DNA of 64,000 nt from an uncultured Spirochaetota bacterium (GCA_963727175.1 CAVSFD010000002.1:4701381-4765380); one strand, 5' to 3'. Shown: positions 6,711 through 50,253, numbered from the stretch's first letter. Notes: a model not told the origin generated them from the sequence alone. A program made the numbers and translations.

Positions 6711-6842
6711 TGCAGTGGTCCTTAATCGCTGAGATGCCTGTATACCGAAATAATATACTGTGTTGTCTTTGCTGTAATACAGCCTGATTATGATAATGCT
6801 GCGCCATCAGTCTGGCTGGCCAGCTTCCTGCGCCGGCCCGTG

Positions 6843-7523
6843 TTAACGGAGAAGGCGCTCAGCGACAAAGTAAAAAAACGCCGCAGCCCCGAGATAGAGG
6901 AGCATGACGGAAAACGCCGCGGGAATCTTGAGCCAGTTCCTTTTTTCCCTGACCTGCTCAAAGGCATACCGGCACGACAGGCCCAGGATGATCTCGGGGA
7001 TAATGATATAGACCGCGGTATGCCCCACCATGGCCACGTTCCGCGCATACCAGGAAGGAAGCATCCACACGGTCTCCTCTGACGCGCCGAAAATCACCAG
7101 GGCCAGGAGCGCAGCGGCCCAGTAGCCGAAACGGGGAGAGAGGCGTTCACTGACCCGCCCGGCAGCGTATATAATGATGAAAACTGGAATGGCCCACAGG
7201 CCTGCCATGTAACCGGAGACTGTGCCGATTTTCAGGAACCCGTCCTCCGGGAAGACCAGTACTCCCAGCTGGTGCGAGAGGAACCAGTCAGGGAACACCT
7301 GGAAGACGCTCAGGATAAGGGCAAAGAGCCAGATGTTGATCCAGAGATCATAGCCGCGGAGCTTTGCCGTGACCGGCAGGGCGATATTGTACAGCACAAC
7401 AAGGATGAAAAGCTTGATGCCGATCTCAGGGCCGGGGATCAGGAGAACCGGGAGGCAGATCAGGGAAAAAGCCGCGTGGAGGATAATAGCATCGCGCTCT
7501 TCACGGGTTAATGAAAACTTCAT
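6843..7523 (-). CDS. Integral membrane protein of unknown function (5-6 TM helices)
   Basis: 226-aa ORF that is hydrophobic throughout. I recognise no catalytic motif. Confidence 0.45.
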   Translation of the reverse strand: MKFSLTREERDAIILHAAFSLICLPVLLIPGPEIGIKLFILVVLYNIALPVTAKLRGYDLWINIWLFALILSVFQVFPDWFLSHQLGVLVFPEDGFLKIGTVSGYMAGLWAIPVFIIIYAAGRVSERLSPRFGYWAAALLALVIFGASEETVWMLPSWYARNVAMVGHTAVYIIIPEIILGLSCRYAFEQVREKRNWLKIPAAFSVMLLYLGAAAFFYFVAERLLR

Positions 7524-28716: not shown

Positions 28717-29574
28717 CTATTCCTTACCGCCAGCTGCCCTGAGAAGTTGTACCACCTCATCATTACCATACTGGAGCGCCTTGGTCAGGGCCGTCTGCCC
28801 CAGGTTGTCCCGGGCGTTTGCATCAACCTGGTTCTTGAGAAGCAGCCTCACCACTGCCGCGTGTCCGTTAAGGGATGCCAGCATCAGGGCTGTAACGCCG
28901 TAGGAATCCGCCAGAGTGATCCTGGTGTTCACCCTGGCGCCGGCCCTGATGAGCAGCGCGGCGACATCGGCATGGCCGCCGTAGGATGCCATTAGAAGGG
29001 ATGTCCATCCCTTATCGCTGGCCGCATTCACGGCCGCATTGCTCTTAATGAGAAATGCAACCATGTCAGCATGACCGCCGCCGGATGCCAGCATGAGAGC
29101 GGTCGCGCCATGGTTGTCCCGCGCGTTGACCTGGGCTCCGATCTTCACCAGGTACTCGGCTACGCCCACGTATCCGTATTCCGCTGCCCGCATCAGGGCG
29201 GACATGCCATTGTTATCCTTCGTGTTAACACCGGCGCCTGCAAGGAACAGCGCCCTGACCGCATCAACAGTGCCGCTTTCTGCTGCCATCATGACCGCGG
29301 TCCTGCCGTTGATATCCTTCAGGCTGACGTCGGCCTTCTTACCGGTCAACAGGGTTATAATATCGCTTTTGCCGGCTCCGGCCGCCGCCATCAGGGCTGT
29401 CATGCCGTCACCGTTCCTTGCGTCGACCAGGGCTCCCGCCGCCAGCGCGGACCTCACGCCTTCGATGGACCCGCCGCGGGCAGCGTTGATAAGATCGTCA
29501 TTGACGCCGGCATGAACAGCAGAAAATGCGCTGAGAACCACGGCGAAAACCGCACCGTGCTTCATGAGATTCAT
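28717..29574 (-). CDS. Secreted ankyrin-repeat protein (7-8 ANK repeats)
   Basis: Signal peptide MKHGAVFAVVLSAFSAVHA followed by tandem 33-residue repeats (DxNGxTALMxAAxxGHxxxVxxLLxxGAxVNA). The start was chosen at MNLMKH. Confidence 0.75.
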   Translation of the reverse strand: MNLMKHGAVFAVVLSAFSAVHAGVNDDLINAARGGSIEGVRSALAAGALVDARNGDGMTALMAAAGAGKSDIITLLTGKKADVSLKDINGRTAVMMAAESGTVDAVRALFLAGAGVNTKDNNGMSALMRAAEYGYVGVAEYLVKIGAQVNARDNHGATALMLASGGGHADMVAFLIKSNAAVNAASDKGWTSLLMASYGGHADVAALLIRAGARVNTRITLADSYGVTALMLASLNGHAAVVRLLLKNQVDANARDNLGQTALTKALQYGNDEVVQLLRAAGGKE

Positions 29575-30279
29575 CGGGTCCCTCCTTGCTGCGCAGCAGC
29601 GGGCTGCCGGCGGCAACTGATCACCGCGTTATTTTCAACAGAGTCTATTATCCTCCATTTTCCGGAAATGTCCATATTTTTTTTAACTCTAACCGGAAAA
29701 TAGAAGCGAAGTGTTTGAGGGGTGTCACTATCCATGCAAACATGCAGGTCAGGTTGTGGTCATGGCAGGAACAGCCGCCGGACAATCGTGTGTGCCTATA
29801 TTTTATCCGTTACGGCGAATTCAAACTGGATAACCTGTTAAAAAAAGAGCCTTGCAACTTCATTGACAGTCCGACCCCGATGTTGAGCTGCTCCCCTTTC
29901 CAGCTCCCGGCAGGCCCACTGTACAAAGAAGGCATAACCAGTGCGGCATCACCGACCTTTGCCTCTTGTTCGACAGAAACCGCGTGGGCACTATTTCGGC
30001 CGATGAAGGTGAAAAGCATGATCACGCTGAAACACCCGATACCGGCGCTTAATTTGCTAGAATCAGGCTGAATAAAGGACTGCAGCATTGATCAGAAATA
30101 ATTATAACTGTAATAACCGCCCCTCACTGTATATAGTGTCACCGGCAAGTCATGATAAACAAAAAAATGTATGCATTTTTCCTGCGAGCCACCGGTATCG
30201 CGCCAGGAGCCGAGAAATTGATCTTGACTGGCCCGGTAAGATCGAACACCATAGCCGGGAATATTGAATCAATCCATTC

Positions 30280-30972
30280 ATGCCTATGCCTGAAAAGCAG
30301 ACAGTCCTTGTCATAGAAGACGAAGCGGGTATCGCCGACACGGTGACCTTTGCCCTTTCCCGCGAAGGGTTCGAGCCGGTCTGGACCGCCACGGGCGCCG
30401 AAGGCATATCCCGGCTGGAGCGGGGCGGCATCGACGCGGTTATCCTGGACATCGGCCTCCCTGACATCTCCGGTTTCGATCTTGCCGGAAAGATCAGGAG
30501 GCAGTCGAACGTGCCGCTCCTCATGCTCACCGCACGCACCGATGAGATCGACCGGGTCCTGGGCCTGGAGCTGGGCGCCGACGATTACATCGTAAAGCCC
30601 TTCAGCCCGCGGGAGCTTGTCGCCCGCGTCAGGGCGGTCCTCCGGAGAAGCGGCGGAACACCGCCGGCGGCACCGGAGAGCTCCCCCTTTGCCATCGATG
30701 CCGGCCGCCGCCAGATCTCGTACCGCGGCGTTGTGCTCGATCTCGCCCGGTACGAATACGAGATCCTCCGCCTCCTCGTCAGTCGCCCCGGCTGGGTGTA
30801 TACGCGGGAGAAGATAATGGAGATGGTGTGGATCGAGCCGGATGAAAGCTTCGAGCGCACCGTGGACACGCACATCAAGACGATACGGGCAAAGCTGCGC
30901 ACCGTCGATCCTGAGACCGACCCCATCATAACGCACCGCGGCGTGGGATACGCCCTGAAGGAGGACCTGTGA
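30280..30972 (+). CDS. creB: OmpR-family response regulator, CreB-like
   Basis: Receiver domain (VLVIEDEAGIADT...DAVILDIGLPDISGF) plus a winged-helix domain. It is followed by creC-like and creD genes. Confidence 0.75.
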   Translation: MPMPEKQTVLVIEDEAGIADTVTFALSREGFEPVWTATGAEGISRLERGGIDAVILDIGLPDISGFDLAGKIRRQSNVPLLMLTARTDEIDRVLGLELGADDYIVKPFSPRELVARVRAVLRRSGGTPPAAPESSPFAIDAGRRQISYRGVVLDLARYEYEILRLLVSRPGWVYTREKIMEMVWIEPDESFERTVDTHIKTIRAKLRTVDPETDPIITHRGVGYALKEDL

Positions 30973-32405
30973 GAATCAGGACGCGCATCCTCATCGGCTT
31001 CATACTCCTCTACGCTGTCGGATCCTATTTCGTGTTCGACATGATCGTCAGCGATATCCGCCCCCGTTACCTGGAAGCAGTCGAGGAATCCCTCAACGAT
31101 ACGGCCCACCTGATGGCGGCGCTGATCGAATCGGATATGAAAACAAAAGGATCCCCGTACGAAAGCATAAAAACAATTTTCAGCGCCGTGTCCCGGAAGA
31201 AAATATCATCCCGCATATACGGCCTTATAAAGTCGGATATAAACCTGAAGGTCTACGCCACCGACTCCCGGGGCATCATACGTTACGACTCCGATGGCGG
31301 CAAAAACGAGGGAAAGGATTTTTCCCGGTGGAACGACGTGTACCGGTCCCTGCGGGGGGCCTACGGTGCCCGGTCGTCACGATCGGTGCTCAGCGACCCC
31401 TCGACGAATGCGCTCTACGTGTCCGCGCCGGTCATGAAGGACGGCGCCATCGCCGGCGTGGTCACCGTGATCAAGCCGGAAAACAGCGTCACCCTCTTCA
31501 TGAACCTTGCCAGGCGGAAGATAATAACGGCGGCAGTCATATCAGGCATTGCCTTCATCATCCTGGGCGTCCTTCTGACCCTCTGGATCAACCGGCCCAT
31601 AGCAACATTGCTCCAGCACGTCAGGAACCTCCGCGCCGGGAAACGGGAGGAATTCCCCGACCTTTCCGCCGCCGAAATAAGGGACCTGGGGCTCGCCTTC
31701 GAGGATATGCGCGCCGAACTCGAAGGCAAGGATTACATCGAACGGTACATCCAGGCCCTGACCCATGAACTCAAGAGTCCCCTCTCATCGATCCGCGGTG
31801 CGGCAGAGCTCCTCGACGATGATATGCCGGAGGAGCAGAAAAGGAAATTCCACCGGAACATCCTGAATGAAACAGGTCGCATCGACAGCATCATCGAAAA
31901 ACTGCTGCAGCTGACAGCCATTGAGAAAAGGAAAAAGCTGAAAGACCGGGAGACGGTCTCCCTCAGCGGGATCGTTTCAGAGGTCATCGCAAGCCTGGAA
32001 CCGCAGATCATAAAGGGCGGGGTACGCATCGAGAACAGCGTTTCTCCGGGTCACGCAGTTACCGGGGAAAAATTTCTTATAACCCACGCGGTCCTGAACC
32101 TGGTTAAAAATGCGCTCCAGTTCACCCCTGACGGCGGCACCATAACACTGATGTCGGTTGCACAGGAGGTCTTCACCATCCTGACGATAGTTGATACCGG
32201 CACCGGCATTCCCGCTTTCGCCATGGATAAAATATTCGACAGGTTTTATTCCCTCCCGGGCAGGGACCGGATGCGCGGCAGCGGCCTGGGCCTCCCCTTC
32301 GTGCGCGAAGTAGCCTATCTCCACGGCGGGTATGTAGAGATTAAAAACAATTCCACCGGGCCGGGAGTCACCGCGACCCTGGCGCTTCCGTGTAAACGCG
32401 CCTAA
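30969..32405 (+). CDS. creC: Sensor histidine kinase, CreC-like
   Basis: 478 aa with a GTG start overlapping the creB stop, 2 TM helices flanking a periplasmic domain, H-box ALTHELKSPLSSIRG and an ATPase domain. Confidence 0.75.
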   Translation: MRIRTRILIGFILLYAVGSYFVFDMIVSDIRPRYLEAVEESLNDTAHLMAALIESDMKTKGSPYESIKTIFSAVSRKKISSRIYGLIKSDINLKVYATDSRGIIRYDSDGGKNEGKDFSRWNDVYRSLRGAYGARSSRSVLSDPSTNALYVSAPVMKDGAIAGVVTVIKPENSVTLFMNLARRKIITAAVISGIAFIILGVLLTLWINRPIATLLQHVRNLRAGKREEFPDLSAAEIRDLGLAFEDMRAELEGKDYIERYIQALTHELKSPLSSIRGAAELLDDDMPEEQKRKFHRNILNETGRIDSIIEKLLQLTAIEKRKKLKDRETVSLSGIVSEVIASLEPQIIKGGVRIENSVSPGHAVTGEKFLITHAVLNLVKNALQFTPDGGTITLMSVAQEVFTILTIVDTGTGIPAFAMDKIFDRFYSLPGRDRMRGSGLGLPFVREVAYLHGGYVEIKNNSTGPGVTATLALPCKRA

Positions 32406-32563
32406 CGCGGCGTTACCTTTTTTGCCCGAGGGGCCGGCATTATTGTGAGGGGGACTGTCTTCGCGGCCTCCCCCCTTGCGCTCCTCCCTCCCGGTCGCTC
32501 AAACGGCGCGGCGGCCTACGGGCGGTTGTTTTGAGGGCTTTGAGTTAGGATTAAATTTTTCTA

Positions 32564-32584
32564 TTAATACCCGCGGCAGGGATG
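32564..32584. repeat. Left copy of the direct repeat TT(A/T)ATACCCGCGGCAGGGATG. A G/A-rich hairpin lies 3' of it at 32688-32722.
   Basis: 20 of 21 positions are identical to the copy at 33541-33561. The AT-rich leader AAATTTTTCTAT is also similar. Confidence 0.5.
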
Positions 32585-32758
32585 CCGCAGGCGGTAATCG
32601 TCTGCAGGATGCTGCATACGATTGCCGAACAATTGAAGTAAATTCATAATTTAAGCCCGGCCCTCCGCAGGAGCGGGGTGATGGGGAGCACGAGGGGAAG
32701 AGGGAAGTCGCCCTCTTCCCCTCGCAATAGTGCAGACCCGCACCGGGTCATATAAGCA

Positions 32759-33418
32759 CTACTTCATGTACTTATCCCAATTGGTTGCAAGAAATAATGA
32801 GGTTATCTCCTTGATTGCCGCATTCACGTTCTCGATTTTGTCCGGCATGTGAACTATTCGGATCTGGATCATCATGTTGTTTTTATACAGGTAGGCTTCC
32901 GCTATATAGTAAACGTAATCGACCCGGGTTTTATCATCGAGCTCGACATTCTTCTGGGTCATCTTCTGGATGTATACATCGGCCTGGTTTATCGTCGATT
33001 TCGTGACCGGCCCGTAACTATGATTGCCGTGGTCTTTCTGGCCGTCCATTTTCCCGTACTGTTTTTGCTGCTGGGCCATGGAGGACCAGGTGGACGCCAT
33101 GTAGCCGGCGGTCCGGGGATTGTATCCCATGATCCCGACCTGGAGTTCAAGGCTGTAGTGGCCCTGCCTATTGTAATTTTTCTCGCCCTGTATGCCAAGA
33201 CAAAGAAACATCTTCTGGGTTTCCTCGTAGACCCAGTTCTTCGACTTGATGGGCACCCCCTTCGGCATCAGGCCCTCGAGCTCTTTCGGAAAGTTCTTGC
33301 CGCTCTTGTCCCCCATGTTCATGTATTCGTTCATCATGTCCGATGCCTGGTCGGCAAAAACCACGCAGGGGAACAGCGCGAGGAGGAAGTATACTATAAT
33401 TTGTGTCATTTTTTTCAT
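32759..33418 (-). CDS. Secreted protein of unknown function, encoded on the opposite strand between creC and creD
   Basis: 219 aa with a signal peptide (MKKMTQIIVYFLLALFPCVVFA). The sequence is Met/Gln/Tyr-rich and carries no known motif. Confidence 0.5.
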   Translation of the reverse strand: MKKMTQIIVYFLLALFPCVVFADQASDMMNEYMNMGDKSGKNFPKELEGLMPKGVPIKSKNWVYEETQKMFLCLGIQGEKNYNRQGHYSLELQVGIMGYNPRTAGYMASTWSSMAQQQKQYGKMDGQKDHGNHSYGPVTKSTINQADVYIQKMTQKNVELDDKTRVDYVYYIAEAYLYKNNMMIQIRIVHMPDKIENVNAAIKEITSLFLATNWDKYMK

Positions 33419-33540
33419 ATTAAAACTCCATGATATTGTAAGTTTCGGTAATCAGGTTCGATTTCTCCCTCAACTACCCGGCTGACATATGATGATACTA
33501 TTAATAAATAATCGAGAAATTAATTAATCGGCAAATATTT

Positions 33541-33561
33541 TTTATACCCGCGGCAGGGATG
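33541..33561. repeat. Right copy of the direct repeat TTTATACCCGCGGCAGGGATG. A hairpin GAGAGGGAAG...CTTCCCTCTC lies 3' of it at 33582-33612.
   Basis: See the left copy. Together the two copies bracket the secreted-protein gene. Confidence 0.5.
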
Positions 33562-33642
33562 GGAGTGCGCGAGAGGGAAGGACGGGGCGTGCTTCCCTCT
33601 CGCATGCAGGCCTGACCGGCTCCCGGTCAAAAAAACTCAAAC

Positions 33643-33669
33643 TTCATGGTATCTTCATAATAGTTTCAC
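33643..33669 (+). promoter_or_regulatory. cre-tag-like direct repeats TTCAT-N6-TTCAT-N6-TTCAC, 46-72 bp upstream of creD
   Basis: The sequence acTTCATggtatcTTCATaatagtTTCACc has 11-bp phasing. The E. coli CreB site consensus is TTCACnnnnnnTTCAC. Confidence 0.45.
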
Positions 33670-33714
33670 CCGCCCCCCCTATGTTATTGTAAAACATTAC
33701 ACAGGAGGAAACCC

Positions 33715-35082
33715 ATGTTTCTCAAAGGATTATCAGAATCCCTGATTTTTAAAATAGTTTTTACCGGAATGCTATCCCTTGCCCTGCTGATTCCCCTCAC
33801 CATGGTGAGCGGCATCGTGACTGAGCGGGAATCCAGGCGGGAATCGGCGGTAAGCGAGGTAAGCGGCAAGTGGGGCCATGAGCAGACGATCATCGGACCG
33901 GTGCTCACCGTGCCCTACCGTCATTATTACAAGGATGAAAAAAATGTCGCGCGGATGAGCATAGAAAACGCCTATTTCCTGCCGGACACTCTCGCCATCG
34001 ACGGCACTATCCTGCCGGAAAAACGGTCCCGCGGCCTCTACGAGGTGGTCCTCTACCGGCTGGAAGACCTTTCAATCCTGGGTCGCTTCAGCGCGCCGGA
34101 CTTCACGCGTCTCCGGGTCCCGGAGAAAGACATCCTGTGGGATGAGGCCTGCCTCACGGTGGGGATCCCTGACACGAGAGGCATCCAGCAGCGTGTCTCC
34201 CTCACCTGGAACAAGAAGGCGGTCCCCTTCCTTCCGGGGGTGCGCGGCAGCGGTCTGTATCAGTCGGGAATCCACGCCTTCATCAGGGATATCCGCTCAG
34301 GCGGCCGCACCTTCGATTTTGCCATGAAGCTATCCCTTCAGGGAAGCTCCTCTCTGAGCTTCGCTCCCCTGGGACAGGAAACGACAGTGCGCCTGAGCTC
34401 GACATGGCCGCACCCGAGCTTCACCGGCGCCTGCCTGCCCTCAACGCGGAAGATAACGGCGAAAGGATTTGAAGCGGGATGGAAAGTGTCGTACTTCGGC
34501 AGGAACTTTCCCCAGGAATTTACCGATGAAGCGAAAATCAACCCCGCCGATTCGGCCTTCGGCGTCATCCTCTACCAGCCGGTCGATTTCTACCAGAAGT
34601 GCGTGCGCGCGGTGAAGTACGGGTTCCTCTTCATCTCACTCACGTTTCTATGCTTCTTCCTCTTTGAAGTGTTCATGGGACTGAAGATACACCCCCTCCA
34701 GTACCTGATGGTGGGATTCGCCCTGTGCCTGTTCTATCTGCTCTTCCTGTCCCTGTCTGAATACATGAATTTCATCGTGTCCTACCTGGTAGCAAGCATT
34801 GGTACTATTGCAATGATTACCGGGTACAGCGTCAAGGTATTGAAGACGAGAAAGCGGGGCGGTGTCATGGCGGGGTTCCTGGCCGGCCTGTACGCGTATC
34901 TTTTCATCCTGCTGCAGAACGAGGATTATACCCTTCTCCTGGGGTCCGTGGCGCTCTTCGTAATCCTCGGTGCCGTTATGTATATCACGAGAAACATAGA
35001 CTGGTACCGGGTGAGCTTGAATACACCTGCACAGTCCGCAGCCGTGGGTCCGGGAGGAGGTCACAATACAGGTAATGATTGA
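33715..35082 (+). CDS. creD: Inner-membrane protein CreD
   Basis: 455 aa with an N-terminal TM helix, a large periplasmic domain and a C-terminal cluster of TM helices. Length and architecture match CreD. Confidence 0.75.
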   Translation: MFLKGLSESLIFKIVFTGMLSLALLIPLTMVSGIVTERESRRESAVSEVSGKWGHEQTIIGPVLTVPYRHYYKDEKNVARMSIENAYFLPDTLAIDGTILPEKRSRGLYEVVLYRLEDLSILGRFSAPDFTRLRVPEKDILWDEACLTVGIPDTRGIQQRVSLTWNKKAVPFLPGVRGSGLYQSGIHAFIRDIRSGGRTFDFAMKLSLQGSSSLSFAPLGQETTVRLSSTWPHPSFTGACLPSTRKITAKGFEAGWKVSYFGRNFPQEFTDEAKINPADSAFGVILYQPVDFYQKCVRAVKYGFLFISLTFLCFFLFEVFMGLKIHPLQYLMVGFALCLFYLLFLSLSEYMNFIVSYLVASIGTIAMITGYSVKVLKTRKRGGVMAGFLAGLYAYLFILLQNEDYTLLLGSVALFVILGAVMYITRNIDWYRVSLNTPAQSAAVGPGGGHNTGND

Positions 35083-37984: not shown

Positions 37985-40132
37985 CTAAAAATCATAGACC
38001 AGCTTCATGAGTAGACCGGGGTTATTATCGATGAATCTTTTTATATCATCGCTCTTCATCGCGTACACCGCGACTGTCTCCCGGTTGGAAAAAGTATAAT
38101 CAGCAGGCTCATTCAGGTGCAGCCTCTGCACCGAACCGATGAAATCGCCCCGTTTCAGCTCGGCAACGCGCCTCCCTTCCTTCGTGACCTCCACTTCCCC
38201 GTTCCTGAGAATATAGATATACTGCATCGGCTCCCCTTCGCGTATGATGTCGCTCGGACCCCGCAGCTCCATCGGGATAAATATCGATTCGAGCCAGGTC
38301 TTCTGCGAGGAGGTGCAGTACCGGAAAAAATCGCTGGTGGAGAGAAGGTTCCACGTCTCGCTGTTGCGTATCCTGGCGAGCCGCTGAAGGGTCTTCTCGA
38401 ATTCGGTGCCGACAATGAAGTTCTGGAATTTCTCCCTGCTGATGGTGTACACGACCAGGTCCGTTTCAGCGATGACGTCGGCGGCCCGGTTCTGTTCGGT
38501 GACGAGGGCCACTTCGCCGAAGTAATCATAGGTGCCGTAGATCTTCTTCTCCTCGAGGCCGCCGCTGTCGACGGAGACATTGCCCGAATAGATGATGAAG
38601 AACTTGTCACCTGCGGTCCCCTTCCTGATGATGACGTCGCCCTTCCGGTACCGCTCCTCTTCGACGATATCCAGGAATTCCTGGGCCTTCGACAGGGGGA
38701 GCGCCTCGAAGAAATCGAGATTTTTCAGGATGCCCATGATCTGGTACGCCGTCTCAAAGCGGGGGTGCTTCGTCTTGAAGTAGAGCGTGTTTTCCATGCC
38801 GAACTTTGCCAGGGTCAGGGCGGTCTTCGCAGGAAAATCCTTCTTGGCGATATGGTACACGACGATTTTCTTCCTGATCTTTTTAGGGAGGGAATTCAGG
38901 TACGTTATGGGCGTGTGGAGCGGGGCAATGCCTGATTCGTGATAGATTACCTTTGAGTCCCATGGAAAATTGCAGAGATCGTCATAACGCTCCCCGGTTA
39001 TGAGCCTTTTATCGAGAAGCTCCCGGTGGATATTCGGATCGTTGTTGTGGTCCGAGGAATACACGAAGGTCTGGTCCTGAAACCCCATCTTGAACCCGAT
39101 GGTGGGTATCGAATGGAGCGTATAGAACATGTCGAACCTGCCCCCATGGATGAAAGTCGGTGTCCCGATCTTGATGGGATGAAAGTCGAAAAGACGCATC
39201 AGGTACGATATGGGCATGTTGCTCAGCGCCGAATACTTGCGCAGAAAGCTCATCATCACCGTCTCGGTGGTATAGATGGTGACCCGCTGCTCCTGGAGTA
39301 TCTTCTGGAATGTGCCGGCATCATGGTCCGCGTGGCAGTGGGTGAGAATGATGCTGTCGGTAAGCTTCGGGTTCACGTTGGAGTCGACGAGCCATTCCGT
39401 CGAGTTCACCGGCGGGTCCACCATGACGCCGTTATGATTCAGCCAGATGATGAAACCGGAGGTGTTCTCCTCGGGGTCAAAGCCGTGGCTCGGGCCCAGG
39501 CAGGTGACGCCGAAGAGGGGCGGTTTGTACGGCTCCGGGAGCCGCTTCCCTATAAGGTACTTCGGCTTGTACTCGACCCGTGAAGGCACCACGGCAATCA
39601 GGTCAGCCCCCTGGCTCACCCGGAAATCACCGTCATTCCCGATCTCGATGGTTACTCCCTGGAGGGTGAAGCTGTTGTTCTTGAAAAAGCCGAAGGAAAG
39701 CAGGTCGGAGAATTTCAATCCCCTTCTGAAGTAATCCATTTCCATTTTGATATCGGGGATGGTACGACCGCCGCCCGATACAGATTCATAATCGGTGGTA
39801 ATATCGAACTCTTTCGGCCCGAAGAGAGCCTCCTGGAGGACCTTCTTCATCTGCTCAAACTGGCTTTCCCTGCATATGATGGTTGTCCGTCTCTTCTTCA
39901 GGAAAAAGTTATAATAGATCGGGAATTCGATCTCCGCGATGCTTATTCCCTTGAGCCAGTTGAAGAGGTCATTGGTGAGGACAAAGATCTGCGGCACGCC
40001 CTTGGCCATGCCCATGGTGTCCTTGATCGTCTCCGGAGGAGATCCGAACTGTATGTATCCCGCCGGCGTATCCACCAGGTATCCGCCCCGGGGAAGGACC
40101 GCAATGTTTTTCATTGTTTGTTGTTCATTCAT
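37985..40132 (-). CDS. Multidomain protein: N-terminal domain, metallo-beta-lactamase fold with class-II cyclic-nucleotide phosphodiesterase-like HxHxDH motif, and two C-terminal cNMP-binding (CAP-family) domains
   Basis: 715 aa. The THCHADH motif lies in a metallo-beta-lactamase fold core. The two cNMP-binding beta-barrels are FGEVALV...RAADVIA and GDFIGSV. Confidence 0.65.
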   Translation of the reverse strand: MNEQQTMKNIAVLPRGGYLVDTPAGYIQFGSPPETIKDTMGMAKGVPQIFVLTNDLFNWLKGISIAEIEFPIYYNFFLKKRRTTIICRESQFEQMKKVLQEALFGPKEFDITTDYESVSGGGRTIPDIKMEMDYFRRGLKFSDLLSFGFFKNNSFTLQGVTIEIGNDGDFRVSQGADLIAVVPSRVEYKPKYLIGKRLPEPYKPPLFGVTCLGPSHGFDPEENTSGFIIWLNHNGVMVDPPVNSTEWLVDSNVNPKLTDSIILTHCHADHDAGTFQKILQEQRVTIYTTETVMMSFLRKYSALSNMPISYLMRLFDFHPIKIGTPTFIHGGRFDMFYTLHSIPTIGFKMGFQDQTFVYSSDHNNDPNIHRELLDKRLITGERYDDLCNFPWDSKVIYHESGIAPLHTPITYLNSLPKKIRKKIVVYHIAKKDFPAKTALTLAKFGMENTLYFKTKHPRFETAYQIMGILKNLDFFEALPLSKAQEFLDIVEEERYRKGDVIIRKGTAGDKFFIIYSGNVSVDSGGLEEKKIYGTYDYFGEVALVTEQNRAADVIAETDLVVYTISREKFQNFIVGTEFEKTLQRLARIRNSETWNLLSTSDFFRYCTSSQKTWLESIFIPMELRGPSDIIREGEPMQYIYILRNGEVEVTKEGRRVAELKRGDFIGSVQRLHLNEPADYTFSNRETVAVYAMKSDDIKRFIDNNPGLLMKLVYDF

Positions 40133-43438: not shown

Positions 43439-44437
43439 TCACCCGCCGATCTTTGACATGAACCCTGACCTGGTCAGGGCCGAGCATCCGCCCTCATCAG
43501 GGGCGCAATCGAGGCTGTGGCCCTCACCTTTCATTGAGACGGCCTTCATTATTTCCCCGCGGACCGTATCGTCGTCCGCCCCTTCGCGGAAAAGCTTTTT
43601 CAGGTCATGGTCTGCACTTGAATGCAGGCACGTCTTCAGATAACCATCAGAGGTGATCCTGAGGCGGTTGCAGGATGAGCAGAACTTCTTCGTAAGGGGC
43701 GGTATCACGCCGATCCTCATCCTGTGTCTCCCCCGGTAGCGGTAATCATACATCAGGGCGACATTCGTGTCGATATCCCTGTTGCGCTCAAGGTCTCCCC
43801 TGGCACGCAGTTCCCCGATGAGCTTATCCGATGAAAGGAAAGACCCGCCGGATTCATCTTTAACGAAGGGCATCTTCTCGATAAATCGCACGGTCACGTC
43901 CCGGTCTTTGAAAAATTCAAGATAATCATCCAGCTCGGCGATGGTCTCCCTGAAGAGCACCGCGTTCACCTTCACGTCAAAAAACCCGTGCGCCAGGGCC
44001 CTGTCGATGGCGGATAGTACATCGTCAAGGCCGTCACGCATCGTAATGGCACGATAGGTTTCCCTTGAAAGCGTGTCGAGACTGATATTAAGTTTTCTCA
44101 CCGCCAGGCGGCGCAGGTCATCGATATAATCGCCGAGCAGTATGCCGTTGGTGGTAAGACAGAGTTCAAGCCCCGGGTATGCATCCCTGGTCTTCGACAC
44201 GATATCGATAAAGCCCTTCCTGACAAGAGGCTCGCCGCCTGTGAAACGCACTTTCACGATGCCCATGGAAGCAAAAATGCCGATAAGCCTGACAAATTCC
44301 TCGTTCCTGAGGACCTGGTCATGCGGAAGCAGTTCCACGCCCTCGGGGGGCATACAGTACCGGCATCGCAGGTTGCATTTGTCGGTTATGGAAACACGCA
44401 GGTAGTCGTGTTTGCGCAGATAGGCGTCGGTAAGCAT
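43439..44437 (-). CDS. moaA: GTP 3',8-cyclase (molybdenum cofactor biosynthesis protein A)
   Basis: 332 aa with the rSAM motif CNLRCRYCMP, the C-terminal auxiliary cluster CSSCNRLRITSDGYLKTC and the GG tail. Confidence 0.85.
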   Translation of the reverse strand: MLTDAYLRKHDYLRVSITDKCNLRCRYCMPPEGVELLPHDQVLRNEEFVRLIGIFASMGIVKVRFTGGEPLVRKGFIDIVSKTRDAYPGLELCLTTNGILLGDYIDDLRRLAVRKLNISLDTLSRETYRAITMRDGLDDVLSAIDRALAHGFFDVKVNAVLFRETIAELDDYLEFFKDRDVTVRFIEKMPFVKDESGGSFLSSDKLIGELRARGDLERNRDIDTNVALMYDYRYRGRHRMRIGVIPPLTKKFCSSCNRLRITSDGYLKTCLHSSADHDLKKLFREGADDDTVRGEIMKAVSMKGEGHSLDCAPDEGGCSALTRSGFMSKIGG

Positions 44438-44784
44438 AGCGCCATGAATACTCCACGGAAAAACTAAATATCATCCCAGGTAAGATACAATAGAAATGAG
44501 GATATATTGGCAAGTATTTTAATGATGCTGGTTTTTTTCATCAAAACAGATTCCGGACTATCCAATAATACAAAAAATGCCCTAAGGTTATGAGAGAACC
44601 GATAATATACATTCATAAGCAATAATTAAGAAAAAGAGATCAGTCATAAAGGATGATTAACCAGTTGAATGACAGCACATATTATTTTGATCCTGAATTA
44701 TTTTTTTATTGATAATAAAGTAAATCAATATAATCATGGCATCCTTCTTCGTGATTTTAATCTTATAATGCGGAGCGAGACGAC

Positions 44785-45576
44785 ATGCACAGCTTTGATG
44801 ATCTGAAAAGAAAACTTGAAAAGAAAATCGCGGGAAATGAGATCAAGTCACCCGACGATGTCAATGCAGCGATTATTAAAATATTAGGCGAAAAGAAATA
44901 TTCAGCATATAAAACACATGTTGATGACATAATAGCTTTTTACCGCACAATGGTTCTGGAAAGAAAAGTAGAGAAATTATTCTATCATGTAATAGATCTT
45001 GGAAACGGCGAAGTAACCAAGGGCATGTTTGATATACGGAACATTTTACATGAATATAAATTCCCCGAGTCCCTGAGGGGGAAACGGGTGCTTGATGTTG
45101 GTTGCGCTGACGGTTTTTTTTCCTTTCATTTCGAGCGGCTGGGGGCAAAAGAAGTTGTCGCCATTGACACTTTCGAAAATGAAAATTTTCTCTACGCCCG
45201 GAAAAAATTGGCCTCAAAAGTCAAGTATAAATTGATAGATGTCATGGACATAAACCCGATTGACATGGGATACTTCGATTTTGTTTTTTGCGGAACCGTC
45301 CTCATTCACTTGTCAGACCCGATATATGCCTTGAAAAATATCAGGAACATGATACAGCAAGGTTCTTTTTATTGTTCAAGCAACATTCATTTTCATGGGA
45401 CAAGCCTGCCCCGGAAGGCTTTATCAAAGTTGCTGAAGAAGTCACCAAACTACGCCCTGCTTGAAACCGGCGGTCTTGGAGAAGGCGAGGTCCCATCATA
45501 CTGGATACCGACTGCCGATACATTAAGACTCATGCTGCTGAAAGGGGGATTTAAAAACCATCGAAGGGGCCGATAA
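44785..45576 (+). CDS. Class I SAM-dependent methyltransferase (in AT-rich island)
   Basis: Motif I is VLDVGCADGFFS, with motif post-I following. Local GC is about 38%. Confidence 0.65.
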   Translation: MHSFDDLKRKLEKKIAGNEIKSPDDVNAAIIKILGEKKYSAYKTHVDDIIAFYRTMVLERKVEKLFYHVIDLGNGEVTKGMFDIRNILHEYKFPESLRGKRVLDVGCADGFFSFHFERLGAKEVVAIDTFENENFLYARKKLASKVKYKLIDVMDINPIDMGYFDFVFCGTVLIHLSDPIYALKNIRNMIQQGSFYCSSNIHFHGTSLPRKALSKLLKKSPNYALLETGGLGEGEVPSYWIPTADTLRLMLLKGGFKNHRRGR

Positions 45577-46132
45577 ATGTTCAATATATAATAGCACCTT
45601 CGGAAAAAAAATACGCTCATACAAAGGAACATGGAATTATCCACAGGTATGCTTCAAGTGCATAGTCTAACTACAATCACCTGGTGAATGTATTTATTGA
45701 TTCTAAATACATTGCCTTTTATAGTAGAACATCCCCTATCGTATACGCACTTAACAGCACTATTAAGATTATCATAGTGATAAAAACCGCAGATGACGTA
45801 AATAATAAAATGCGCCGGCATGAAACAGTAAACAATCGCCATGGGGACCGGACAAACACTTCGGTTATATCATGTTTCACCATGGTCAATTTGATATATT
45901 TAAAAAAATATTTATTGCTCACCATTATCCTTATGAACCAGGCATGTTCCTCCCTTTTTTCTGGAGTAATCTGAAAAAATGGTTGTTCTGGAGACGGTTA
46001 ATAATAACATTTATTCTGATATTAAATAATTGTCCGGCGAATGATGCCGGGGATGAACACCATGCTCGCCAATTATTTATAGATTCAAGATTAATCATGA
46101 AAACAATCGTTTAATGCAAAAAAGGATACGAC

Positions 46133-47290
46133 ATGAATATCGCATTCGAAGCATTCGCCCTGTCCTTCAAAAACCTAACCGGCATCGGGAACGTGACCCT
46201 CAACTATATCAGGGAGCTTCAAAAAAATGATCCTGATAATCGCTATTACATCTATACCATCGATGGGCTCCTCCATGCCGAGCTGCAGAGCGAAAAGTGG
46301 CGTCACGTTCAGACAGGACTGGCGTGTCAACACCTTTAGATATCCCGGTGCCGGCAGGCCCTGGCACGCTGAGAAGCGGCAATGTATGATACGATATCAT
46401 ACAAACTCAGGCTGTTCTTTTACCGTGTACTGAAAATGGCCCTGGAAGTGATTGACCGGGGCTGCCTCTACTTCTGGCTTGCAAAATCTATGCGCGACAA
46501 CAGGATAGATGTCTATATCGGTTTCTTCGCCGATTTTTTCCCCTTCTGCTTTTTTTCACCGGTAAAAAAGATATGGATCATTCACGACCTTGTATGGAAA
46601 CTTTATCCTGAAACGACTGACATAAACAGCAGATACAAAAAGCGCGCCATTGTCAGGAACATGAAGCGGGCCGATCTGCTCCTCTCGGTATCTGACAGCA
46701 CCAGGAACGACCTGATAAGTCTTCGGAACATTCGAAAGGAGATCATAACACTCCACAACGCAGCAGACCGGAGCGTGTTCTATAAGGCCGACCAGAAATC
46801 CGTTATGCGCATCACCAGGAATTATGGCATTACCCGTCCCTACATATTGTCCGTATACACCCTGGCGCCCCGCAACAGGTAGTCGCGGTTATTGACGCTT
46901 ACGGAAAAATCGGGCGCAGTGTGAAGCACCAGCTGGTGCTGGCGGGGATGAGCGGGTGGAAGAACACGAAGCTCTTCGAAATGATAGAGCACAGGCAGAT
47001 CTTTTTTATCGAATTGATATCCCGGCAGAAACAAGGACAAAGGAGTCATGTGTTTCTTGCTTCCCAATCTCTGCGAAGCGTCGGTGCAGGTCCTTGAAGC
47101 GATCCAGTGAGGTTATGTCCTGCATTTCACGACATGGCCTCGAAACCTGAAGTGGCCGGCGATGCGTGCATCCTGGTGGACCCCAACGACATTGATGGCC
47201 TGGCATCGGCAATTAAGCGGGTGCTGGGGGACAGGAACCTGAGAAAAACCATGGGCAGGAACGGCCTGGACAGATGAAAAAAACGCACCG
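46133..47290 (+). pseudogene. Glycosyltransferase family 4 (GT-B) gene broken into at least 4 frame-shifted pieces
   Basis: The pieces are MNIAFEAFALSF...TGIGNVTLNYI, ...YILSVYTLAPRNR, LVLAGMSGWKNTKLFEMIEH and PEVAGDACILVDPNDIDGLASAIKRVLGD. They lie in three frames, with stops at A and T homopolymers. Confidence 0.55.
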
Positions 47291-47907
47291 GGAATTCATC
47301 GGCGGACAATAATCAGAGCGTTAACCTTTCGAACCAGAGACTTCCGGTACATATGCCGGTCCAGGTACTGCTGATCTATTGATCATCTACTTATACGTAA
47401 CAGGTATATGGTCATTTAAAAGCACTCAATGATCTCAATGCTGCATCATTAACTTCATTGGGGTCATAGGATATATAAAAAATTTTATCTACTTTTATTA
47501 TGTTGACAAATATTGACATGTCCCTTTAAAAGATAGATTCAGATTATGTTATAATTTTCCCTTTACTTATACCAGAGAAAAAAACGGAGACATGAAAGGA
47601 GCCGTACAGTTACATTACTGCAACGCCCGTGAAGCCAGGGAACAAGCGGACAAATACGGAACAAGCGAGTAGCTTGCTCAAATATAATTTCTAATTCGGG
47701 ATACATGCAACATGGTGCATGCAGATTTACAGTATTTTAACATGACAATCGAGTACTGATTATTCGATCAGCATGGAACGTATACGGCGGAGGCGAGATT
47801 TTAACGTCATGACTCTGCAACTACCTCTCCAGCCAGGCATGCAAAATTCGATACTGACAAGTGAAATGTTCCCGAAATAATTTCCGGCCTGATACAACAC
47901 CGATGTC

Positions 47908-48889
47908 ATGATAGAAAAAATAAAACCCGGCGAACTGCGATCCATGATGGACAAGTACAGGAGGCAGATGAAATCGCTTTCACTGGGCTTAAGGAAACAT
48001 CAGGAATCCTTTGATGTCATCAATGCGCATAATTTTCCGGCGGAAATCGTCGCTGCGTCAAGCAGCAAGCCCGTGGTCTGGATGTGCAACGAACCGGAGC
48101 TATCTCTGATTGGCAAGCAACCGGGTTTAAAATCATGTTTCACGCCCAGCATGATTTACCTCTATATCCAATATTTACGAGAAAAATACCTGGTTAAGAA
48201 TAAAATAAAAAATATCGTTGTATCCGATGAATTCAATGCGGAAAGATTTCATACAATTTACGGGTTACATCCGACAATTATCAATTATGGTATAGATTAT
48301 GACTTCTTCTCCGGCAGGGGCGAAGGAGAACGGCAGGAGGATGATTCTTTCGTCAAGAAATTCGACGATCTCCATGTAGGCATGATCACAGGGTTCAAGA
48401 ACCAGATGTAAAGCCTGGAAGCTCATAATGCCACCAAGAATAAAATACCGGAAAGTGTTATTGTATTCGCCGGTGGAGGATATGACGAAAACTATAAAAA
48501 GCTGATTGATGCGTACATCCAGGACAATGATCTACTGATCGGGTCATTTTCAAAGGCCACATCAACAGGAGCCAACTGCGTTCACTCTATCACAGATCAA
48601 ACGTCATGATCCACCCGATCAAGGCCCAGGGCGGATGGCTGAGCCCCTTTGAAATGATGAGTGCCGGGAAGCGGTGATAGTGTCAAAAGAATTCACCGCA
48701 TCCGACCTGATTGAAAAAAACCGGCTGGCGATCATAACTGATAATTATGACGAAGCCATTCTCGATAGATATTTGCACCACGGCAGGATTGCCGGGATGG
48801 TGGAGCGCGGCAGGGAATACGTAAAAAACAACCTCTCCTGGGACTCATTCGGGAAAAAGATGCTGGATGCATACACCGCAGCCCTGTAG
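47908..48889 (+). pseudogene. Second GT4-family glycosyltransferase gene, frame-shifted
   Basis: The N-terminal-domain ORF covers 47908-48411. The C-terminal part is in other frames (GHINQLELRSLYHRSNVMIHPIKAQGGWLSPFEMMSAGKAVIVSKEF...). Confidence 0.5.
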
Positions 48890-48910
48890 TCCTTATACAG
48901 TGAACATCAT

Positions 48911-50253
48911 ATGGAAAAAATAAAACTCAACGAGCTGCAGAGATTTTTGAAAAATTTCTTTTTCAGGATCGTGGGACTACTGATTTCGACATTGTTCAAT
49001 ATCCTTCTGGTCTCCCATTATTCAAAGGTCCTTCTCGTAGACGGTTTTGGAAGGTACAACTTTCTACTCACCTACACGTCATATTTCCACCTGATAATCT
49101 CGCTCGGCCTCGACGTCGTGTCGATGAGAGAGATCTCTATATCGAAGGGTGAAGACTGTTTCGGCACCATGATGTGAGGAATCTTATTCTTGCCGAGATC
49201 CATTGGTATGATAGCCGCCATACAAAAAGCGACTATGGATGGCTGCTGGTAATATCGGTGCTCTACACTGTTGTCTTATCCACATATACATCGATATTCA
49301 AGATCGGGACCTTATCATTTATTTGTAGTCCCTGCAGAAATATTTTAGTAGTGTAAAACAGGGATCTACGCGGCGGGCATCATTAACACGGCTTCCATGG
49401 TGATGATTGTATTCATGCAGCTGATACTTGTCATGAAGATACATGGTAGCCACCCCCGATTTGAGCGGACGTCAATGGGAACAAAGAGTGGCATAATTAT
49501 CGGATTCATCCAGATCATGCTTACCATGGTTATTACTTCAACATAATTCTGCTGGAATGACAGACGAAGTGACGATCGTTGCCAACGCCGATCCGCTCAT
49601 GCACCGATCCGCTGGGGATTTCATAACTCATGAATCCTATCCTCTTCGAAAACTAAAAAAGAGCATCGATGATTTTAAAAAGTATTTTGAAAAATACATG
49701 AAATTCATGATCTTTTTCAGTTATGGCGTCACCGTGATTTTCATTATCCTGGCTGAACATTATTTGCAGATTTTCTACAACCTCAAGGATTACCATGAAA
49801 GCATATTCTGTTTCAAGATCCTCATGTTGTCCCTGCTTTTCATGACCATCAACTCACCGCTCCATGGCGGCATGCTGGCGGCGCACAAGGAAAAAACGAT
49901 CCTTTTAATCACGGTAGTCAATTTTTCTTCTTCATAATAGCAAGAACCTGCCTGGTTATTCGGCATACGCCGGCCATGACGGCCTGATTTACCGGCCTTG
50001 GGGCCCCCACATAACTACTTTAAACAAACGTTCCTACACATTGCTTAAGATTTGTCATTCCATTCTTTTAGCAATCCCCATGGGGATATTTCTATATTTC
50101 AGCCCGCTGCATTACATGATCACGGGAACCATTGGGGTGGTAATCATGATTATTTTCGCTGTTATTCTACGAGGTTATACTATTGAGGAGATAATGACCA
50201 TCAAGAAGACCCTGTTTTCAGCCAATAAACAAGATGAATCCGCAGAACTGTAA
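48911..50253 (+). pseudogene. Wzx-like polysaccharide flippase gene, fragmented
   Basis: Consecutive hydrophobic ORF fragments (MEKIKLNELQRFLKNFFFRIVGLLISTLFN..., ...IFFSYGVTVIFIILAEHY..., ...LLAIPMGIFLYFSPLHYMITG...) lie in different frames. Confidence 0.45.

Follow-up and report, generated by a model that had tools for sequence, protein, structure and literature searches.

Direct repeats around a gene between creC and creD in an uncultured Spirochaetota bacterium: most likely the result of a micro-inversion at a palindromic spacer

Results

The creBC-creD locus of an uncultured Spirochaetota bacterium was analyzed in a 64 kb stretch of DNA (GCA_963727175.1, CAVSFD010000002.1:4701381-4765380; hereafter the window), which corresponds to 1.3% of the 4.8 Mb source genome. 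Its creB, creC, and creD products all score above the NCBIfam equivalog cut-offs (Table 1). As initially annotated, creC and creD are separated by a minus-strand open reading frame (ORF) of 219 aa with a signal-like N-terminus (orf219), which is bracketed by the 21-bp direct repeats TT(A/T)ATACCCGCGGCAGGGATG; sequence reading and repeat finding confirmed both copies (20/21 identical). These repeats had been read as the footprint of a cassette insertion or as members of a family of small palindromic elements that mobilizes or terminates genes.

In characterized creABCD and creBCD clusters creC is directly followed by creD (PMC4689548). The same order is found in distant relatives of the window (L034/35/36, CreD 57-60% identical), which lack a gene between creC and creD. 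orf219 is therefore an extra gene relative to canonical cre loci, as had been proposed, and the empty site that the initial annotation suggested looking for among the cre loci of relatives does exist, indicating that orf219 joined the cre locus at the root of its clade. The known cre/blr tag has the sequence TTCACN6TTCAC (PMC4689548). In the window, TTCAY repeats with 6-nt spacing are located ~45-70 nt upstream of creD, and relatives carry TTCAC-N6-TTCAC/T-N6-TTCAC at the same position; this tag-like element, with three half-sites instead of two and conserved in Spirochaetota, is a putative CreB site. Clustered CreB, CreC, and CreD orthologs at equivalog level and tag-like repeats ahead of creD (TTCAY-N6-TTCAY-N6-TTCAC) place this locus in the creBC-creD type (creABCD/blrABD/creBCD). 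Unlike the canonical representatives, one Spirochaetota clade harbors an additional, self-promoted exported-protein gene between creC and creD, which is moreover inverted in the window genome.

The 21-bp repeats turned out to be part of a hairpin module of ~90-100 nt that is present in three copies, U1 and U2 in direct orientation and a degenerate U3 in inverted orientation. The module is composed of an AT leader, an 18-mer that is identical in both repeats, a G-rich box, a G/A-rich hairpin, a linker, a GACCnGG hairpin, and an A/T run. A perfect G/A-rich hairpin had been described after each repeat copy. Both hairpins exist: I5 (CGAGGGGAAGAGGG/CCCTCTTCCCCTCG, 32691-32704/32711-32724) is a perfect 14-bp stem with 100% complementarity, whereas I4 (GCGAGAGGGAAGGACG/CGTGCTTCCCTCTCGC, 33569-84/33588-603, 16 bp) is only 94% complementary, and the distance from the end of the repeat to the hairpin is 8 nt for copy 2 compared with 107 nt for copy 1. 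Similarity between U1 and U2 extends past the 21-mer through hairpin, linker, and a second hairpin (GACCCGcacCGGGTC, 32735-49, vs. GACCGGctcCCGGTC, 33614-28), the latter pair differing by a compensatory exchange. Outside the 18-mer the two units are only ~68% identical, and their alignment without the 21-mer scores 44.8 compared with 21.0 ± 3.7 for shuffled sequences. U3 aligns with the reverse complements of U2 and U1 at scores of 46.5 and 44.5 (shuffles ~19.5-20 ± 3.6, 0/500 as high), compared with 27.5-28 for direct-orientation controls. An nhmmer profile built from U1, U2, U3, and the arm of relative L024 retrieves U3 with an E-value of 5.2e-16; since this profile included U3 itself, the shuffle test is the independent evidence.

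The units fold better than shuffled sequences on both strands (z -4.0 to -6.7), with -91.4 kcal/mol for the minus strand of 32564-32758 (z = -6.7) and z-scores of -4.0 (plus) and -4.5 (minus) for U2. Compensatory changes in the stem, with double changes in 4/15 pairs among four sequences, are weakly suggestive of a maintained structure. On the orf219-sense strand, the 18-mer of copy 1 forms the 3' arm of a 10-bp hairpin together with 32584-93. Over 80 nt, the core of U1 shares 79% identity with the sequence flanking the 3' end of orf219 in L024/L028; hairpin hpA of L024 has a T-run behind it and resembles an orf219 terminator, whereas this T-run is missing in the window. We infer that the hairpin spacer may serve as a 3' end, terminator, or insulator between orf219 and the CreB-controlled creD promoter. 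Of the gene-terminating element proposed initially, the part that stands is that the hairpins plausibly help to end or insulate transcripts; its membership in a dispersed mobile family is not supported. A canonical intrinsic terminator at the units was rejected, as either strand reads T-run, hairpins, and A-run, which is the wrong order. Rfam returned nothing at gathering thresholds for the whole window, and a permissive scan of 32380-33740 yielded only miRNA-model noise on the hairpin.

The orientation of orf219 and the distribution of the module were then compared among relatives. In ten loci with CreD proteins 82-88% identical to that of the window, creB, creC, orf219, and creD are all encoded on one strand and, as in the window, AlgX-like and MBOAT genes follow creD; these loci represent at least three lineages (L016/17/22/25/29/30; L024/28; L032/33). 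orf219 is reversed in the window lineage only; there, two Logan assemblies, L014 (100%) and L015 (99.3%), likewise show the right junction, the reversed orf219, and the U1 side. Searches with whole units (blastn) and with the nhmmer profile found no module copies elsewhere in the window or in ~0.43 Mb of relatives' loci, matches in relatives being confined to the orf219-creD spacers. No copy is located between creC and orf219 in relatives carrying the interposed gene. In the L016-type spacer, whose sequences were outside the profile training set, the profile detects a minus arm next to orf219 (6726-6663, E 2.5e-4) and a plus arm next to creD (6778-6820, E 2.7e-5). The orf219-creD spacer of relatives is thus an inverted pair of the same module, a long quasi-palindrome. 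That of L024 is bounded by an inverted repeat of 25 nt (88%; T-run and hpA vs. hp2' and A-run), and that of L018 harbors a long-range inverted repeat of 21 nt (95%) around the inner hairpin CCTGCCG-gcgg-CGGCAGG.

orf219 is probably equipped with its own promoter/operator, consisting of an A-tract and the partly palindromic motif AATTAATTTCTCGATTATTTA. The motif is identical to that of the L016 lineage (5899-5919 in L016) at 21/21 positions, though the coding region is only ~75% identical, and variants of it are located at ~2420-2440 in L020 and ~5930-5950 in L023. Homologs of orf219 also occur in two unrelated non-cre contexts (L019-21, 77% identical; L023, 61%), in each case with an A-tract and a motif like AATTAATTTCTCGATTATTT ahead of the gene. 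In the window, the 5' untranslated region that separates the motif from the start codon shows no conservation. Flanks of the non-cre homologs (L019-21, L023) do not contain the module, which consequently does not travel with the gene.

Alignment to L016 reveals a block of opposite orientation. Window positions 32715-33418 align in reverse to L016 6706-6001 and positions 33505-25 in reverse to 5919-5899 (21/21), whereas 33596-33799 align forward to 6781-6983, in the same order as the sequence upstream of creD in L016/L022. On this creD side, the right arm of hairpin hp1, hp2', the A-run, and the TTCAY repeats at U2 are colinear with the L016 creD upstream region. The creC-orf219 spacer of relatives consists of the terminator hairpin-TTTTT-cACC, 3 nt, ATAAAAAAA, and, further on, the promoter motif, its second part reading ATAAAAAAA...TTAAATTAATTTCTCG. 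In the window this spacer is split: GGCGTT..ACC is kept after creC and gives way abruptly to TTTTTT and U3, while the second part, ATAAAAAA and the promoter motif, is found reverse-complemented at 33505-33545. The left junction (J1) reads GGCGTTACC joined to TTTTTTGCCC, the alternative orientation being GGCGTTACC joined to ATAAAAAATATTTGCCG.

We therefore favor, with a probability of roughly 0.6, a private inversion of the orf219 module in which one arm was duplicated and by which the 21-mers became direct repeats. In the clade with orf219 between creC and creD, two modules normally form an inverted pair that occupies the interval from the orf219 stop codon to the CreB-type tags ahead of creD, and this would be the ancestral state. 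The block comprising the orf219 promoter, orf219, and the palindromic spacer would have inverted in the window lineage, with one breakpoint only a few nt past the terminator of creC (J1) and the other at the creD-proximal arm. The latter arm would have ended up at both block ends, as the inverted U3 and as U2, and the orf219-proximal arm would have been flipped to become U1, now a direct repeat of U2 across the gene. Seen from orf219, the arm pair is still located behind the gene in the window (U1, then U3), and U2 stays before creD; a single inversion with the creD-proximal arm at both ends would reproduce this order exactly. This could have come about by staggered breaks or by template switching at the palindrome, one arm being duplicated in the process. 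Inverted duplication of a breakpoint region is a product of staggered breaks or template switching at palindromes, and the window resembles such inversions in that a ~90-nt breakpoint region is present at both block ends in opposite orientation and the breakpoints fall into a quasi-palindrome in which another strain carries a break as well. It differs in the strong divergence of the copies and in an 18-mer common to the "wrong" pair, U1 and U2, which calls for an extra step.

Gene calls suggest that the inversion is private to the window lineage. Downstream of the closest CreC (P0025, 86%), a gene on the same strand encoding at least 187 aa begins after 156 nt; downstream of the closest ORF219 (P0014, 78%), a same-strand gene begins after 180 nt. 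Both distances correspond to the spacing in co-directional loci. Other routes were rejected. An inversion between inverted repeats containing the 21-mers is impossible, as the 21-mers are direct; excision and re-insertion via direct repeats keeps the orientation and results in no inversion; and a model with only two arms, U1 and U2, and a breakpoint at the palindrome center was dropped after U3 had been found.

Several observations weigh against this reconstruction. U1, U2, and U3 are about equidistant, although U3 and U2 should be the most similar pair, and the exact 18-mer is shared by U1 and U2 only (U3 ~10/18), so that the model additionally requires either that the 18-mer is under selection or that a short tract of gene conversion later homogenized U1 and U2. 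The exact 18-mer of U1 is ~98 nt out of register with the rest of the module, with a diverged in-register version, GGAGCGGGGTGATG, at 32668-81, indicating an additional internal history of this unit. The polarity of the inversion is not firmly established either: in the CreD tree, the window and L026 together form the sister group of all co-directional loci represented by DNA, and parsimony on this tree does not decide. J1 is seen only in the window, since L015 starts at 32491 and L014 at 32590, and both assemblies may come from the same sampling project as the source genome.

A second breakpoint in the same spacer is present in a relative. L018 and L016 are 99.8% identical over 5.5 kb and become unrelated inside a C/T-rich hairpin arm (L018 5572/L016 6782), downstream of which transglutaminase-like and other genes replace creD, AlgX, and MBOAT in L018. 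This break is independent of the one in the window, and the orf219-creD spacer appears to be a fragile, recurrent breakpoint. In the closest CreD relative (90%), the contigs L026 and L027 break in a poly-C run (L026 1-55, L027 1-26), 100-160 nt upstream of creD. This run lies just upstream of an hp2'-like hairpin, which is there followed by T8 instead of the A-run; it could be an assembly artifact or a real homopolymer at a fragile spacer.

As for the 18-mer itself, pattern matching with up to three mismatches identified only the two known sites in the window (shuffles 0.07), and by our arithmetic a second exact copy in 64 kb has a chance probability of ~2e-6. Across 185,579 species-representative genomes (596 Gb), the exact 18-mer yields 13 singleton matches in unrelated taxa, with ~17 expected by chance (2 x 596e9/4^18, our arithmetic), and viral contigs contain one match. 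The match in Smithella (L007), the only remotely plausible relative, lies inside a long permease-like ORF and is attributed to chance. An 18-mer-like motif, CCGCCGGCAGGATG, is present in the inner CCTGCCG-gcgg-CGGCAGG hairpin of the L018/L016-type spacer, at the same place and in the same orientation relative to orf219 as the 18-mer of U1; we estimate its chance occurrence in the L016 spacer at ~0.01. It was not found in the L024/L028 and L032 spacers. Copy 2 is positioned upstream of the conserved promoter motif of orf219, at a distance of ~25-45 nt, within the divergent orf219/creD control region, and its first five bases (TTTAT) belong to the orf219 promoter A-tract. A sigma-54 promoter reading of the 18-mer was rejected because GG-N10-GC is matched by copy 1 (GGCAGGGATGCCGCA) only, copy 2 reading ...GGGAG, and a sigma-70 consensus scan of the repeats found nothing beyond shuffled expectation. 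Similarity over 13 nt between GTAAATTCATAAT and GTATCTTCATAAT is at chance level. The 3' end of creC contains a segment (32314-32333, CCTATCTCCACGGCGGGTAT) that is 75% complementary to 33544-33563, with GCGGGTAT matching exactly, probably by chance.

ORF219 has no match in Pfam, NCBIfam, or PDB sequences. Its homologs form just 16 clusters among 5.8 billion proteins, and members are labeled as proteins of Spirochaetes or Spirochaetota metagenome-assembled genomes at NCBI. Its fold is tentatively predicted to be like that of PsbP, Mog1, DcrB, and LpqN, an alpha-beta-alpha sandwich in the solved members. Cys18 and Ala22 in the signal-like N-terminus are invariant, and given this Cys18 ORF219 may be a lipoprotein; relaxed spirochaetal lipoboxes might permit lipid attachment at LxPC. 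ORF219 may plausibly act in the envelope together with CreD.

Elsewhere in the window, a stretch at approximately 44200-50200 has a GC content of 0.39-0.45 compared with 0.53 for the window and contains no ORF of at least 180 aa between 45577 and 51095. Its short ORFs are fragments of glycosyltransferase family 4 (twice), Polysacc_synt, and MatE/MurJ-type flippases, so that the stretch looks like a decayed polysaccharide-synthesis island. The product of a conserved neighboring gene (37985-40132, minus strand; from 11297 onwards in L016) combines a metallo-beta-lactamase fold with two cyclic nucleotide monophosphate-binding domains; the Pfam match in relatives is Anti-Pycsar_Apyc1, a cyclic-nucleotide phosphodiesterase fold. 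Upstream of creB, the window harbors a gene for an ankyrin-repeat protein with a signal-like N-terminus (28717-29616, minus strand), at a place where L016 and L022 have a TolB_N-like gene.

Table 1 Features of the creBC-creD locus and of the orf219 module in the window
Feature	Position	Strand	Remarks
creB	30280-30972	+	NCBIfam equivalog CreB, 306 bits (cut-off 273); Pfam domains; two-component system with creC
creC	30969-32405	+	NCBIfam equivalog CreC, 540 bits (cut-off 356); Pfam domains
Terminator-like hairpin of creC	32398-32423	+	Overlaps stop codon, then TACC and T6 run; terminator scan
Left inversion junction J1 (putative)	~32417/32418		Homology to relatives' creC-orf219 spacer stops after GGCGTT..ACC
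U3	32417-32504	-	T-run, GCCCGAGGGGCCGGC hairpin, linker GCATTATTG, weak G-rich/C-rich hairpin, GCGCTCCTCCCTCCC
U1, whole	32553-32756	+	Leader, 21-mer copy 1, extra segment, core
AT-rich leader and 21-mer copy 1	32553-32584	+	21-mer TTAATACCCGCGGCAGGGATG at 32564-84; exact 18-mer at 32567-84
U1-only extra segment, ~80-100 nt	32585-32666	+	Further hairpins, e.g., AATCGT..ACGATT around GCAGGATGCTGC; gap in U1/U2 alignment
U1 core	32667-32756	+	GGGGTGATGGGGAGCAC, hp1 (32691-32724), linker, hpA (32735-32749); orf219 3' flank; nhmmer E 3.8e-19
orf219	32759-33418	-	Exported protein, function uncharacterized; inverted vs. all relatives
Probable orf219 promoter/operator motif AATTAATTTCTCGATTATTTA	33505-33525	-	21 nt, 100% identical to L016, L022, L018
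Upstream A-tract ATAAAAAA of orf219 promoter	33538-33545	read on -	Alignment with relatives
U2	33532-33635	+	Leader, copy 2, GGGAGTGCGC, hp1 (33569-33603), linker, hp2' (33613-33629), A7 run (33629-35); nhmmer E 1.5e-19
21-mer copy 2 TTTATACCCGCGGCAGGGATG	33541-33561	+	Exact 18-mer at 33544-61
Right inversion junction J2 (putative)	~33545-33547		orf219 A-tract abuts 18-mer of U2
cre-tag-like direct repeats TTCAT-N6-TTCAT-N6-TTCAC	33643-33669	+	Three repeats upstream of creD; read from sequence
creD	33715-35082	+	Pfam CreD, E 9e-156; NCBIfam equivalog, 511 bits (cut-off 275)

Discussion

Direct repeats that bracket exactly one gene are in keeping with insertion, and the initial annotation regarded them as a possible footprint of a cassette insertion. 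In such a scenario, orf219 would have entered as a circular or linear cassette, and the 21-mers would represent a duplicated target or attachment site. An empty site with creC directly before creD in L034/35/36 fits this proposal, as do orf219 homologs with their own promoter motif in at least two unrelated contexts (L019-21, L023), which imply that the gene moved in evolution. Integron cassettes are likewise single genes with an imperfect palindrome (attC) behind the gene and short bracketing direct repeats. We nevertheless consider a cassette insertion very unlikely as the origin of the repeats. Relatives carry the gene at the same place, co-directional with its neighbors and without the module between creC and orf219; the module is missing beside orf219 in the non-cre contexts, where a recombination site should have traveled with the gene; the first 5 nt of copy 2 are the conserved A-tract of the orf219 promoter; and identity of ~68% outside the 18-mer is unlike a fresh target duplication. 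Unlike integron cassettes, orf219 has a conserved promoter of its own, and a Pfam scan of ORFs within ~10 kb identified no integrase, transposase, invertase, RAYT-like, or other recombinase gene, nor was an adjacent intI or attI found, in a neighborhood syntenic with relatives. A dispersed family of palindromic elements, two or three members of which are present here by chance, was the other proposal, and of all alternatives we attach the least probability to it. The units are indeed reminiscent of repetitive extragenic palindromes (REP) and bacterial interspersed mosaic elements (BIME), being extragenic GC-rich imperfect palindromes with stable hairpins (I4, I5) and compensatory stem changes that occur in alternating orientation at gene 3' ends like REP clusters, and only 1.3% of the source genome was inspected. 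Unlike REP or BIME units, however, they are not dispersed: the other ~63 kb of the window contain no further copy (up to three mismatches, blastn, or profile), homologous units in relatives are restricted to the same spacer, and the 18-mer matches in other species genomes do not exceed chance level, with a single match in viral contigs. Nor do the units resemble miniature inverted-repeat transposable elements (MITEs), as their ends (AT leader vs. A-run) are not inverted repeats, a target-site duplication and other copies are lacking, and no RAYT- or transposase-like gene was seen nearby. An 18-mer restricted to two sites in the window, together with relatives that carry the gene without a module before orf219, is the very outcome that the initial annotation had taken to speak against its own proposal.

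Other explanations assign a present-day function to the module. In a programmed inverton, an unlinked invertase would recognize U3 and U2, and reversible flipping of orf219 would couple or uncouple it from creC read-through. As in Hin/Gin- and Fim-type systems, the flipped block is bounded by mutually inverted repeat copies; moreover, the same spacer is broken in another strain (L018) and the contigs of the nearest relative end there. The likelihood of such a switch is nonetheless remote. U3 and U2 are degenerate, ~60% alike without an exact shared core (best stretch 22 nt at 73%), where near-identical repeats would be expected; the orf219 promoter is located inside the flipped block, so flipping would not silence orf219; no invertase is encoded within 10 kb; and orientation is fixed in all assemblies, L014 and L015 having that of the window and all other lineages the opposite one. 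An 18-mer that is itself functional, as a regulator operator or RNA pairing site kept by selection, with the remaining similarity incidental to a hairpin-rich spacer, is unlikely but carries some weight. It would account for 18/18 identity within otherwise ~68% identical units, for the persistence of CCGCCGGCAGGATG at the homologous position in the L016 lineage, where ORF219 is only 70% identical, and for the proximity of copy 2 to the orf219 promoter motif in the divergent control region. The identity would, however, follow equally well from a short tract of gene conversion between the direct repeats, which are 1 kb apart; the motif is missing from the L024/L028 and L032 spacers, the sigma-54-like reading fits copy 1 only, and there is no known match, Rfam included. 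Very doubtful, finally, is a locus-specific recombination or regulatory site formed by the module and its invariant 18-mer, at which an unlinked enzyme would invert, excise, or shuffle the orf219 module, although the presence of orf219 in three unrelated contexts, a spacer broken in two independent lineages, and the 18/18 identity are compatible with it. If so, orf219 and its module would represent a small mobile or switchable gene unit of a type not described before, linked to the Cre envelope-stress locus.

A lineage-specific micro-inversion at a palindromic spacer, as favored here, is most likely a known kind of event in a new place. One consequence is that orf219 is now convergent with creC and divergent from creD and hence no longer able to receive creBC read-through. 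The locus also calls for caution: short direct repeats on either side of a gene are commonly taken for the scar of an insertion, and here they most likely result from an inversion that re-oriented a palindromic arm. Without overturning current understanding, two points bear on the biology of these bacteria. An uncultured Spirochaetota clade recruited an exported protein with a predicted PsbP/DcrB/LpqN-like fold into its creBC-creD locus, a candidate partner for the poorly understood CreD. The spacer behind orf219, in turn, appears as a recurrent rearrangement breakpoint and offers a small natural case of palindrome fragility in a bacterial chromosome.

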